Sequence record: PQ850594.1
Reading direction: 5' to 3' (one strand)
From: Escherichia phage AnnaHegner_Bas87
DNA length: 64,000 bases
Shown here piece by piece: positions 19,058 to 30,532 of this stretch (within the stretch, counting starts at the first letter, position 1; every line of letters starts with the position of its first letter). The position numbers and the translations under genes are program-made. The notes beneath the pieces were generated by a model. The model was not told where the DNA came from. It saw nothing but the letters and a program-made list of their open reading frames with translations, and ran no database searches.

Positions 19058-19282
19058 TTAAACTACACAGAACAAATATATTGCTGTGTCAGGACAAGGG
19101 ATGTGATCACTAGGTTGCCTAATTCTATCCCATTCATCATCTTCTGCTATATAATAAGCCCAATAAGACTCACCATCGTTGATGAAGAATTTGAATGTTC
19201 GTCCCCAAATCTGATTATTATGTTCCCATACTGCATGAAATTGAGTAACACCTTCTGGTATTGTAAGTTCCGCTCTGATCAT
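19058..19282 (-). CDS. hypothetical protein
   Basis: ORF only. Confidence 0.35.
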   Translation of the reverse strand: MIRAELTIPEGVTQFHAVWEHNNQIWGRTFKFFINDGESYWAYYIAEDDEWDRIRQPSDHIPCPDTAIYLFCVV

Positions 19283-19578
19283 TGTATTCCTCTCTCCTTG
19301 AGAGCTTTAAGTAAACCATTATGGTTAGCAGCACAGGTTGTATAATTATCCTGATACCACTCAAGTGTTGTTGCAAATGCCACTCCCTGTGCACTCTGAA
19401 GTAAAGGGAGGTCTACATCACATTCAGCTTTTAGGTTTGTTGGTAAGGGCATTAGCTGCCTGCTGTTGTCGCTCATTGAACAAGCCATCAAACTAGAAGC
19501 GAGCAAAATCACCAAACAACTCTTTTGCTTTTTCTTTGTAAGCATTTTCTGCACCTTCTTGAGTGCTATGATAACCAA
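19279..19578 (-). CDS. o-spanin (outer-membrane lipoprotein, Rz1-like)
   Basis: signal peptide KKKQKSCLVILLASSLMAC with lipobox Cys, Pro-rich periplasmic part; true start probably internal Met. Confidence 0.5.
   Translation of the reverse strand: MVIIALKKVQKMLTKKKQKSCLVILLASSLMACSMSDNSRQLMPLPTNLKAECDVDLPLLQSAQGVAFATTLEWYQDNYTTCAANHNGLLKALKERGIQ
19448..19486 (-). repeat. duplicated spanin-junction segment, copy 2
   Basis: encodes GLFNERQQQAANAL in the HNH frame after its stop; near-synonymous copy of the i-spanin 3' end. Confidence 0.7.
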
Positions 19579-19843
19579 GCCAAATTACTTTGTTTTGATA
19601 TCCGATACGAGCACTCCATTTATTAATATCTGACCTGTATCCTACACCTTTTATTCCAGTTAAAGAGTTCTTTTGAACTATTTTATTGGCATTGTTGAGG
19701 ACAGGTGTTGCTTTTCTTAGATTGCTCCAAGAGTTATTAGACTTATCTAAATCTTTATGGTCTATTTGGAAATCGGGAATTTCTCCAGTTTTTATATACC
19801 AAGCAACTCGGTGAGCTTTGTATGTCTTTCTCTGAAAATTCAA
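19493..19843 (-). CDS. HNH homing endonuclease (HNH_3-type with AP2-like DNA-binding domain)
   Basis: HRVAW...IDHKDLDKSNN...NLR and AP2-like KWSARIGY...LGYH..EGAENAY; homologous N-terminal region extends upstream of the track start. Confidence 0.7.
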   Translation of the reverse strand: MNFQRKTYKAHRVAWYIKTGEIPDFQIDHKDLDKSNNSWSNLRKATPVLNNANKIVQKNSLTGIKGVGYRSDINKWSARIGYQNKVIWLGYHSTQEGAENAYKEKAKELFGDFARF

Positions 19844-19974
19844 TGTTACATAACCAGCTTTTGTTTTACACCCTGCAACCTTTCCTGCGAGTCTTGAGTT
19901 CCACTGAGCGCTCTTATCTTTAGAATGTTTCCAGTACAGAAGACCGGAAGCCTCGTCATAAGACAGATATTTAA

Positions 19975-20316
19975 TTAATTCTTTAATTTCAGTGCCTCCG
20001 CTGCTTGTTGTTGTCGTTCATTGAAAAGTCCTACATACTCATCGCTAGCACACACATTGTAAAAAACTGGCTTAGTCTTTTCATAATGCATCTCTTTGTA
20101 AATAGTTTCCGTGTTCTTCTTCCAGTTTGATAAACCAGTTAGAACTTTCTGAGCCACTTCATCAGCAGCCCTAGCCCTCTCAATCTCTATCTCGTGCTGC
20201 TTCTTCTCTTGGTCAAGAGTGTTGCTATCATTTCGATATTGCTCAAACTTCATTCCACCAAAGAAAATAAGAGCTGTGAAAATAAGAAAGCCTATATTGT
20301 TTTGAAGCTTTTCCAT
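19975..20316 (-). CDS. i-spanin (Rz-like)
   Basis: start moved to ATG 20316 (GGAG RBS; track start is GTG 20340 inside terminator hairpin); N-terminal TM, coiled coil. Confidence 0.5.
   Translation of the reverse strand: MEKLQNNIGFLIFTALIFFGGMKFEQYRNDSNTLDQEKKQHEIEIERARAADEVAQKVLTGLSNWKKNTETIYKEMHYEKTKPVFYNVCASDEYVGLFNERQQQAAEALKLKN
19996..20031 (-). repeat. duplicated spanin-junction segment, copy 1
   Basis: encodes GLFNERQQQAAEAL as the true i-spanin C-terminus. Confidence 0.7.
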
Positions 20317-20329
20317 TTTAACTCCAACG

Positions 20330-20351
20330 AAAAAAGCCACCCAAAGGTGGC
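20330..20351 (-). terminator. rho-independent terminator (minus strand)
   Basis: GCCACC-CAAA-GGTGGC hairpin followed on the minus strand by a T-run. Confidence 0.6.
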
Positions 20352-20374
20352 TAAGCTATTACAAGGAGAGATTC

Positions 20375-21115
20375 TTAGAATGGAGAGTCATCCTCTTCAA
20401 AGGTTGATTGCGGCTCTTCATTAATGGTAGGGATGCTTGGAGTAGCATCTTTCTGTTCAGTGTCAGAAGCTTTAGTAACTTCACGACCAGCCAGAGGGAT
20501 ATTCTTAGCATCGTTAGCTTGAGTCAAGAGGCTACGTTGGAATGGGAAGATTGCTTGATAAGCAGCTAAGTTAGCGTCAGTCTCAGCATACGGTTCGAAG
20601 AAGATCAACTCACTACGAGGAGCACCTACCGCGTCACGATATTTAGTCGGGATTGGAGTGATGCTTTTAATGGAGTTTTTCTTCTCACCAGCTTTGTTTA
20701 CATAGGAATTAACCAGAATGTTAACAGGCTGACCTAACAGCATATCTTTAAACCAACCCAAATCACCTTTCAGTGCTTGAACACTTGGGTCGATCATTTT
20801 AATCAGATTTAGAATACCAGAGTTCTTAGCTCGTGGATTTACATCGAAAGATTTAAACTGGCAAGCAGGACGAGGGTCCAGAGGTTTGCCTTCATTATCA
20901 GTCCCTGTTGCATCTACGCCAATCAGCTCAAAAGCTAAGTCCATACGGAAAGCTGGATTCTTAGGAGTAACTGCTTTGGTTTTAGGGTCAATCCAAGGGT
21001 CACGATTGTGAACACCCAAACCTACAACACGAACAATACGTGCTTCGTACTCACCATCAGGGATTACATCGTAGTTGGATTTACGGGATACAGACAGTTC
21101 AGGGATCATAGACAT
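20375..21115 (-). CDS. putative single-stranded DNA-binding protein
   Basis: acidic C-terminal tail ending EEDDSPF resembles SSB/gp2.5 tails; adjacent to replication genes; weak inference. Confidence 0.4.
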   Translation of the reverse strand: MSMIPELSVSRKSNYDVIPDGEYEARIVRVVGLGVHNRDPWIDPKTKAVTPKNPAFRMDLAFELIGVDATGTDNEGKPLDPRPACQFKSFDVNPRAKNSGILNLIKMIDPSVQALKGDLGWFKDMLLGQPVNILVNSYVNKAGEKKNSIKSITPIPTKYRDAVGAPRSELIFFEPYAETDANLAAYQAIFPFQRSLLTQANDAKNIPLAGREVTKASDTEQKDATPSIPTINEEPQSTFEEDDSPF

Positions 21116-29558: not shown

Positions 29559-30072
29559 ATAAAGACCCTGTCCACACCCACTCAGTGATCATGCCCTGAG
29601 GCAATACGAATCGAGCTTGCTCTGGAGCGATAAACTTAATCAATTCATCATACGACTCAAGAGCTGTTTCGTATGCCCGATTAATCAGAACTAGTGCAGA
29701 GTTTTGTGCTCCTGTGGTGAGGAGATTCCCCGCACCTGCATGGAGGTCCGAAGGTCTTTCAAAAATCTCTTTAGGGATGAAGAGTTCAACTGCTCCATCT
29801 TTATACCGCCGGGACATTTCGTTCCATGAGAATCCAACTTGGTGTTTATTGAGTTGTCTAGCAATTGCAATGGGAGCCTTACACCGAAAGGTGATTTGAG
29901 GGTGTCGAAAAGGAGTCACATGACGTTCCCGAGCTAAGAATTTAATCAACCGCTCGTCACGTTCGTTCAGATCACCATCTCGTGTCACACCAAAGGAAAC
30001 CCTTGCTGCATTGACCACAGATTTGTCGGAACCCATGTGCTCTACCAGTGTTGCTTTTAAAAAATCAGACAT
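29422..30072 (-). CDS. thyX: ThyX-family (flavin-dependent thymidylate synthase-like) protein with divergent signature
   Basis: overall ThyX pattern but the canonical RHR-X7-8-S motif reads KHQVGFSWNEMSRRY. Confidence 0.55.
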   Translation of the reverse strand: MSDFLKATLVEHMGSDKSVVNAARVSFGVTRDGDLNERDERLIKFLARERHVTPFRHPQITFRCKAPIAIARQLNKHQVGFSWNEMSRRYKDGAVELFIPKEIFERPSDLHAGAGNLLTTGAQNSALVLINRAYETALESYDELIKFIAPEQARFVLPQGMITEWVWTGSLFGWSELCRQRLSDHAQYEVRLFASTVDEELRKLFPISWDALREAH

Positions 30073-30532
30073 ACTTCAACTTCTCCTTGTTGTAAACTTC
30101 TTCTGCCTCTTCGCAAGAAGCAAAAGTCCCTAAATGTATATTCTTACCTTTGACGCCAATGATGGCTCGGTATCTATCACCAGAAGTTGTCTTACGAAGA
30201 TACACACCCCTAGGAAGATTTCCTATCTTGCTATCAACATCATACTGCTTTCTGTTATGGCAGTTAGTGGATGGATTTACATCTCTTAGGTTATCAATCG
30301 AATCATTAAGTTTGTTCTGGTCGATGTGGTCAATTTCAAACTCAGGAAACTTTCCATGAACAAAGAACCAAGCAAGGCGACAAGCTCTGTAGCTTTTCCC
30401 TTCATACTCAATATAACGATAACCTAGAGAAGATACATATCCAGCTTGATTCCCTTTAACCCTTCGACCTTTTGTGTTCTTCCAGAAGAAGGCTCCAGTC
30501 TTAGGGTTATATTCCAAGTCATCTTGTATCAT
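30065..30532 (-). CDS. HNH homing endonuclease (HNH_3-type with AP2-like domain)
   Basis: YRACRLAW...IDHIDQNKLNDSIDNLR and AP2-like RYRAIIGVKGKNIHLGTF..EEAEEVY; stop overlaps the ThyX-like start. Confidence 0.7.
   Translation of the reverse strand: MIQDDLEYNPKTGAFFWKNTKGRRVKGNQAGYVSSLGYRYIEYEGKSYRACRLAWFFVHGKFPEFEIDHIDQNKLNDSIDNLRDVNPSTNCHNRKQYDVDSKIGNLPRGVYLRKTTSGDRYRAIIGVKGKNIHLGTFASCEEAEEVYNKEKLKYV

Follow-up and report, generated by a model that had tools for sequence, protein, structure and literature searches.

Translation in Escherichia coli can start at near-cognate codons—with AUU, AUC, AUA and CUG initiating at ~0.02–3% of AUG—and two genes of this bacterium, infC and pcnB, carry confirmed AUU starts (10.1101/063800). 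In phage T4, it is common for a free-standing homing endonuclease gene to overlap the upstream open reading frame (ORF) by 11–24 bp. Such genes are translated at a restrained level, and limits on their expression through coupling or scanning have been proposed (PMC2988022). Shivani and phiR201, two T5-like phages, have a GIY-YIG homing endonuclease gene standing between their spanin genes, which are thereby separated; only the far C-terminal end is altered in the i-spanin, and only the lipoprotein signal sequence in the o-spanin (Kongari et al. 2018, PMC6139136). The element described here falls under these known kinds: genes initiated at AUU, homing endonuclease genes under translational restraint, and spanins separated by an endonuclease. 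It is an HNH endonuclease gene placed between the spanin genes of Escherichia phage AnnaHegner_Bas87 (sequence record PQ850594.1), of which a stretch of 64,000 nucleotides—the window—was analyzed. All genes and coordinates of this locus refer to the minus strand.

The gene has no canonical start codon for its conserved N-terminus. The best explanation, which we consider reasonably probable from the sequences compared, is a start at AUU 19987 (AUC in a sister clade) that is directed by a Shine–Dalgarno (SD) sequence, with or without coupling to the i-spanin gene. The features on which this reading depends are the following:

19493..19987, minus strand: HNH_3 + AP2 ORF as proposed, 164 codons plus stop, translated from ATT 19987
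20018..20020, minus strand: TAA, in frame, closing the HNH frame upstream
19995..19999, minus strand: GGAGG Shine–Dalgarno sequence, 7 nt before the ATT
19985..19987, minus strand: ATT (AUU), proposed initiation codon and only start-like codon common to the copies
19841..19843, minus strand: TTG, first ATG, GTG or TTG in frame, read as internal Leu49 (codon 49 of 164)

An open frame without a canonical start

The HNH frame (20023..19493) translates as Q*TTTTSSGGTEIKELIKYLSYDEASGLLYWK...FARF*, with its stop at 19495–19493. The initial annotation had described this frame as lacking a canonical start for the conserved N-terminal region, and this holds: the first ATG, GTG or TTG is TTG 19843 at codon 49, from which the ORF is listed as 19493..19843 with 116 aa. 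Upstream of it the frame is open back to the stop at 20020–20018, inside the 3′ end of the i-spanin gene (i-spanin stop at 19977–19975). The only near-cognate codons on the way are two ATT and two CTG—ATT 19987–85, ATT 19975–73, CTG 19966–64 and CTG 19939–37—which likewise agrees with the earlier description. The paralogue used for comparison, at 30065..30532, is real as well; it has an ATG start and 33–36% identity, and its alignment begins from LEYNPKTGAFFWK. A run of 48 codons without such an NTG start is unremarkable alone. The missing start is more than chance here because these 48 codons are homologous to the N-termini of the homologues, conserved and under purifying selection.

Ten copies of the element were compared: the window, the phages Bas86, SU7, PAS59, E20-1, KM01 and EK010, and the metagenome contigs L018, L098 and L099, which came from a metagenome scan plus protein database. 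Scans of IMG/VR, by protein and by orthologue alignment, gave distant homologues only. The copies form at least four diverged lineages, and in none of the ten does a canonical start precede the conserved LSYDE motif, while the 164-codon frame is intact in nine. Among the distant metagenomic homologues with an aligned Trp19 and an intact 5′ end, by comparison, 71 of 72 have a canonical start, which is nearly always an ATG located 16–30 codons ahead of W19. The sole start-less homologue among these 72 is L018, itself a copy of the spanin-inserted element. Since it is common to lineages that have diverged to synonymous saturation, the start-less state is an old, stable and specific property of the spanin-inserted lineage.

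Gene calling does not cope uniformly with this situation. Public annotations and metagenome gene calls use four starts—TTG at codon 49, GTG at codon 37, GTG/ATG at codon 13 and ATG at codon 65—and the six phage records and the metagenome calls all truncate the endonuclease, to lengths of 100–152 aa.

A conserved Shine–Dalgarno sequence and AUU or AUC codon

Each in-frame start-like codon in eight copies was scanned for SD pairing with the 3′ end of 16S rRNA. Codon +1, the ATT at 19987 in the window, has the best SD in every scanned copy: the window clade carries GGAGG-N7-ATT at −9.5 kcal/mol and the E20-1 clade GAGGG-N7-ATC at −6.3 kcal/mol. Over all copies, codon +1 is ATT in 5/10 and ATC in 4/10, in the same column, and the SD is kept at one column as GGAGG, GGAGGTG or GAGGG in 9/10. 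L099 keeps GGAGGTG and ATT despite a strongly diverged i-spanin background, and both cassette variants have the SD though their i-spanin tails differ in protein sequence. Phages without the HNH gene read GCTAGTGCC at the SD position and have no SD there; hence, the SD is not inherited from the spanin gene. ATT 19987 stands 18 codons before Trp19, within the range of the homologue ATG codons, and gives a 13-nt overlap with the i-spanin gene, with the first base of the i-spanin stop 8 nt further on. The ACG at 20017, directly after the upstream in-frame stop, was dropped as a start—an SD is lacking there, and the frame of the E20-1 clade opens just four codons ahead of the ATC.

The non-canonical initiation that had been proposed initially gains support from the SD-N7-ATT/ATC arrangement conserved in nine of the ten copies. 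Which codon is in actual use is read from conservation and context: we infer that it is AUU 19987, that low expression is adaptive and that coupling contributes. Coupling to i-spanin termination, a further initial proposal, is compatible with the arrangement and inseparable from de novo initiation. On a mechanistic level, SD-directed initiation at AUU 19987–19985 would give the full 164-residue protein, and the ribosomes that initiate there may in part come from those that have finished the i-spanin, whose stop lies 8 nt downstream. The weak AUU would hold the nuclease low while the full DNA-binding N-terminal domain is still made.

Several observations weigh against an AUU start at this position. 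GGAGG alone is a weak predictor in this genome: of its 24 minus-strand occurrences, just 8 stand ahead of a canonical start whose ORF has ≥40 aa; for this reason it was dropped as a stand-alone proof of a ribosome-binding site. In L098 (ENA ERZ22233142 NODE_35, ~1095–1125), an extra T in a T-run 5′ of LSYDE puts the conserved ATC out of frame and the HNH gene in frame 0 directly behind the i-spanin TAG. This extra T is either an assembly error or the mark of a lineage using a different ATT. If it is real, the start must be at the ATT two codons past the TAG, with AAGGA 7 nt upstream, which again points to a near-cognate codon, at another place. The E20-1 clade has an in-frame GTG/ATG at codon 13, though without an SD (+0.6 kcal/mol). 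Finally, an ATG at 19987 would create a TGA in the i-spanin frame, with a loss of three residues, and the absence of ATG in the window clade could partly reflect this overlap and not selection for weak initiation. The only effect of an ATG on the i-spanin tail of the E20-1 clade would be a Ser-to-Trp exchange; hence, the overlap does not fully explain the absence of ATG. Selection for weak initiation is what we infer.

As a separate observation, the window SD (CGGAGGC) can pair with GCUUCCG ~45 nt downstream in the HNH coding region (19946–19999; GCUUCC at ~19951–19946). In SU7 this pairing is weakened to G–U pairs, and the E20-1 clade lacks it. A hairpin masking the ribosome-binding site, of the I-TevI/mobE kind, was considered and rejected, with a fold z of +0.83 versus shuffles and nothing conserved in the ten-sequence alignment.

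The upstream 48 codons as part of the protein

A tblastn search with the HNH protein against phage genomes matched >2,600 records. The best non-orthologous matches—phiEB49 gp51, T5 hegI, Pseudomonas KIL4, Salmonella S147 and Vibrio 1.182.O—align from query residue 1–2. In the multiple alignment, Met1 of Vibrio phage 1.182.O falls exactly on the Ile of ATT 19987, and the in-window paralogue begins two residues after this Ile. Residues 1–48 include the peptide stretches MKELIKYLSYDEASGLLYWK (N-terminal) and YLSYDEASGLLYWK.

Selection was tested on codons 6/8–48 versus the catalytic core, by the ratio of nonsynonymous to synonymous substitution rates (dN/dS) or of the respective proportions (pN/pS). 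For the window versus SU7, dN/dS is 0.15 in the upstream codons and 0.09 in the core; for the window versus L099, pN/pS is 0.09 and 0.14, and for E20-1 versus L098 it is 0.33 and 0.20, respectively. Between the window and the E20-1 clade, synonymous sites of the upstream codons are saturated (25/27), with a pN of 0.26. Overall, pN/pS ranges over 0.08–0.33 in the upstream codons and 0.08–0.30 in the core, with pS between lineages of 0.5–0.96. The upstream 48 codons are, by all appearance, translated sequence under purifying selection.

The AlphaFold model, for which 21 sequences were used, reaches a mean predicted local distance difference test (pLDDT) score of 88.9, with residues 1–50 at 91–97. 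Before the HNH motif, it displays the strands E8–11, E16–19, E47–51 and E54–57 (pLDDT 91–97), and TTG 19843—residue 49—lies inside the predicted strand E47–51. The top match of Foldseek in the PDB is I-HmuI (1u3e), with E 5e-4 and 104 aligned columns. As the match to I-HmuI on the sequence level is limited to query residues 52–104, the extra Foldseek columns come from the region around the motif. Pfam HNH_3 (PF13392) covers residues 56–94 with 51.7 bits versus a cut-off of 24.8, while AP2 (PF00847) at residues 110–159 reaches 28.0 bits, under its cut-off of 33.3; Foldseek matches to the AP2 structures 1gcc, 7et5 and 7wq5 have a probability of 1.0 over 47–55 columns. The catalytic D-H...N...N residues D76, H77, N98 and N101 are invariant in three alignments. 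The gene is best explained as that of a free-standing HNH_3 + AP2 homing endonuclease which resembles I-HmuI in its N-terminal and HNH portions. A TTG-started product would lose residues 1–48, a conserved part that is confidently modelled and under selection.

The cassette between the two spanins

Aligning the HNH-less relatives 4E8, ECBP2, Bas91 and VTCCBPA_211 defines the empty allele. Here, the spanin genes overlap: the i-spanin ends with ...DEYVSLFNERQQQAASALTNKPKS*, and the o-spanin begins inside it in a different frame with MKRLSQFFTMCVLAMSMSAC... The insertion point is ...GAGTATGTCA^GCTTGTTCAA..., and all four HNH-less relatives are continuous across the junction, which for the empty allele (4E8, ECBP2) can also be written as ...GAGTATGTCA^GCTTGTTCAATGAGCGACAACAGCAGG... 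In the window, three remnants or copies of spanin sequence flank the endonuclease gene:

19990..20028, minus strand: recoded copy of the i-spanin tail, cassette-borne (LFNERQQQAAEAL), left end of the cassette, 39 nt
19445..19483, minus strand: native copy of the i-spanin tail segment, downstream of HNH, now in the o-spanin gene and not in the i-spanin gene
20031..20084, minus strand: stub of the original o-spanin start, 17 codons (MKRLSQFFTMCVLAMSM*), inside the i-spanin gene

Recoded and native tail are identical in 29/39 nt and 12/13 aa, the differences are mostly synonymous, and HNH-less phages have a single copy of this 39-nt segment. The recoded tail ends the i-spanin as ...LFNERQQQAAEALKLKN*, and the same left end also contains the SD and the ATT of the endonuclease. 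The o-spanin stub is cut by a TAG made at the left edge of the cassette; in HNH-less phages its frame continues as MKRLSQFFTMCVLAMSMSACSMSDNSRQ... At the other side, the last ~17 HNH codons also serve, in a different frame, as the code for MLTKKKQKSCLVILLASSLMAC (ATG 19545), a new lipoprotein signal peptide that joins the native o-spanin at the lipobox cysteine. HNH codons 146–164 (19496–19552) show no synonymous changes between the window and SU7/PAS59, compared with a dS of ~0.5–0.7 in the rest of the gene, and this synonymous silence is consistent with dual coding. The cassette sits in the former i-spanin/o-spanin overlap, and with its recoded tail and overprinted signal peptide both lysis genes are kept intact.

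The element is present in 8 of 95 related phage records (6 phages), in both Kuravirus and Suseptimavirus, with one shared junction, and E20-1 pairs a window-like i-spanin with the other cassette variant. This patchy presence and the mix-and-match state of E20-1 fit a mobile element.

Alternative explanations

If translation started at the downstream canonical codon, TTG 19843, the product would be a 116-aa HNH + AP2 protein and the upstream similarity would be vestigial. TTG 19843 is the first canonical codon and the annotated start in the Bas86 record, and with Pfam HNH_3 beginning at residue 56 the motif and AP2 would survive such a start. The selection data and the codon itself contradict it, however: pN/pS of the upstream codons is the same as in the core (0.08–0.33) over lineages with a pS of 0.5–0.96, and the TTG varies among the copies (ATT in SU7/PAS59, ATA in L018), with a weak SD of −4.2 kcal/mol. 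A start inside a predicted β-strand would further remove residues 1–48 (pLDDT 91–97), within the I-HmuI-aligned columns, and the annotators of the phage records picked three different internal starts, none of them consistent. We regard this start as distinctly unlikely. Other non-canonical codons, in front of LSYDE and in frame, are ATT 19975 and CTG 19966. The former would give a pure termination–reinitiation at UAAUU, which resembles the UAAUG coupling of T4 mobE (PMC2988022), and in L098 the sole usable codon is the ATT just past the i-spanin stop. Neither codon is maintained among the copies, though—ATT 19975 is GTT in SU7/PAS59 and ACT in L099, and CTG 19966 is CTA in SU7, PAS59 and L099 and TTA in the E20-1 clade—and neither has an SD (−0.9 kcal/mol), which leaves a start at one of these two unlikely.

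Three further explanations were weighed. A programmed −1 frameshift near the i-spanin end, raised in the initial annotation, would produce an i-spanin–HNH fusion with no separate initiation. In 9/10 copies, the HNH gene stands in the −1 frame of the i-spanin; the window clade has A_AAG 11 nt after GGAGG, which is reminiscent of dnaX, and in the E20-1 clade (L004/L005/L006/L018) a U_UUA_AAA heptamer, in the zero frame of the i-spanin, comes directly before the HNH ATC. These slip sites differ between the clades and are not aligned, however, with A_AAG only in the window clade and U_UUA_AAA at a different column. RNAalifold on ten sequences finds a 4-bp hairpin at most (−1.0 kcal/mol), and hence no conserved downstream structure, and L098 with its HNH gene in frame 0 behind the TAG would need a different recoding event. 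The i-spanin is anchored in the membrane by its N-terminus and has its C-terminal part in the periplasm (PMC6139136), so that a nuclease fused to it would be out of place relative to the DNA. Without a shared slippery site, a conserved structure or a constant frame relation, frameshifting is unsupported and very unlikely. A decaying, unexpressed pseudogene that has lost its ATG, as also suggested initially, would account for the missing canonical start and the truncation by gene callers. Against decay, the frame is intact in nine copies, the four catalytic residues are invariant, pN/pS is low throughout and the start-less state is shared across synonymously saturated lineages; with the upstream codons as constrained as the core while synonymous sites are half to fully saturated, we reject decay as extremely unlikely. 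HNH ORFs are common in phage group I introns, and the Bas86 record (L001, 585–1477) joins an Rz-like spanin coding sequence in two pieces across the HNH gene, as if an intron were spliced from the i-spanin mRNA. On the contrary, no Rfam intron family is found at E ≤ 10 in 19200–20400, where the matches are four weak small RNAs, below their gathering scores and all at 20248–20393, upstream of the element. Upstream, the i-spanin copy is complete in its tail and ends at an in-frame stop of its own; the same 39 nt lie, in diverged form, on either flank—which is not an exon–intron–exon layout—and the o-spanin gains a new start inside the HNH gene. An intron is the least likely of all these explanations, and the two-piece spanin join of Bas86 looks like a mis-annotation.

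Genomic setting of the locus

The window derives from a phiEco32-like podophage that infects E. coli and belongs to the Gordonclarkvirinae subfamily (Kuravirus/Suseptimavirus), and the nearest public record across 19200–20400 is phage Bas86 (PQ850622) with 96.2% identity and no difference in the start region of the HNH gene. The remaining features are, in their order on the minus strand and with the distant paralogue last:

20352–20335: terminator-like hairpin, first in order, before the i-spanin gene
20316..19975, minus strand: i-spanin, 113 aa, stop TAA at 19977–19975, last 13 nt overlapping the proposed HNH start
19279..19545, minus strand: o-spanin, 88 aa, start ATG 19545, annotated as O-spanin at the same place in SU7
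30065..30532, minus strand: paralogous HNH_3 endonuclease with a normal ATG start

The i-spanin is annotated as Rz-like spanin in the SU7, ECBP2 and Bas91 records. On the 3′ side of the o-spanin gene follow a small ORF and the gene of an ECF-type (extracytoplasmic function) sigma factor. Scans for a sigma-70 promoter or a terminator dedicated to the HNH gene gave none above shuffle expectation.

Implications

Most likely, the public annotations are wrong at the 5′ end, and the real protein has 164 aa, including the I-HmuI-aligned N-terminal part. Gene callers that are limited to ATG, GTG and TTG will go on mis-annotating this endonuclease. In E. coli systems, an AUU start is confirmed for very few genes (infC, pcnB), and a near-cognate start kept over synonymously saturated lineages would be a natural test case for the maintenance of weak starts.

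A more far-reaching idea is that AUU/AUC is a selected feature of a self-contained cassette, comprising a throttled start in the recoded i-spanin tail, the nuclease and the overprinted o-spanin signal peptide, with the start codon held near-cognate to restrict the nuclease to trace amounts, or to a late phase of infection in which IF3 relaxes its start-codon discrimination. We consider this possible yet doubtful. Were it so, infC and pcnB would be joined by a further natural and evolutionarily conserved gene with an AUU/AUC start, and a homing endonuclease would have a new route to curb its own toxicity. At this locus, a pair of overlapping essential lysis genes has taken up a homing endonuclease and neither is broken. 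The insert provides one lysis gene with a new end and the other with a new beginning, a point relevant to the spread of such elements.

Comparison with known systems

Literature searches returned no homing endonuclease with an AUU start and no description of this combination or locus; the BASEL paper mentions endonuclease insertions in Gordonclarkvirinae, not this locus. The individual parts of the element can nevertheless each be set beside a described system.

As for infC and pcnB, a near-cognate AUU would be the only start for a conserved N-terminus, with an SD before it, and low, tunable translation would be expected (10.1101/063800). Unlike these two, the gene is a mobile phage nuclease with its putative start inside another gene and an AUC in the sister clade, and the start is deduced from sequence comparison; autoregulation of the IF3 type is not in evidence here. 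With T4 mobE, segC, segF, mobA and mobC, the gene shares the overlap with its upstream neighbor, which is 13 nt here; in the T4 genes, expression is limited by coupling or by weak sites of initiation (PMC2988022). The T4 genes start with AUG, and several bear an RNA hairpin over the ribosome-binding site (the I-TevI hairpin), whereas no conserved hairpin was found here—the restraint would come from the start codon itself.

I-HmuI of phage SPO1 (PDB 1U3E) is the best structural match and bears a similar N-terminal β-rich region before the HNH motif. It is, however, intron-encoded and has a different C-terminal DNA-binding part, while the protein described here is free-standing and ends in AP2.

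The gene arrangement has a direct precedent in Shivani and phiR201. As in these phages, an endonuclease lies between the spanins, the i-spanin has an altered C-terminus and the o-spanin has a new signal sequence. In contrast to them, the nuclease here is of the HNH_3 + AP2 kind and resides in another phage group, the signal peptide is overprinted on the 3′ end of the endonuclease gene, and the recoded i-spanin tail carries the SD and the candidate start.

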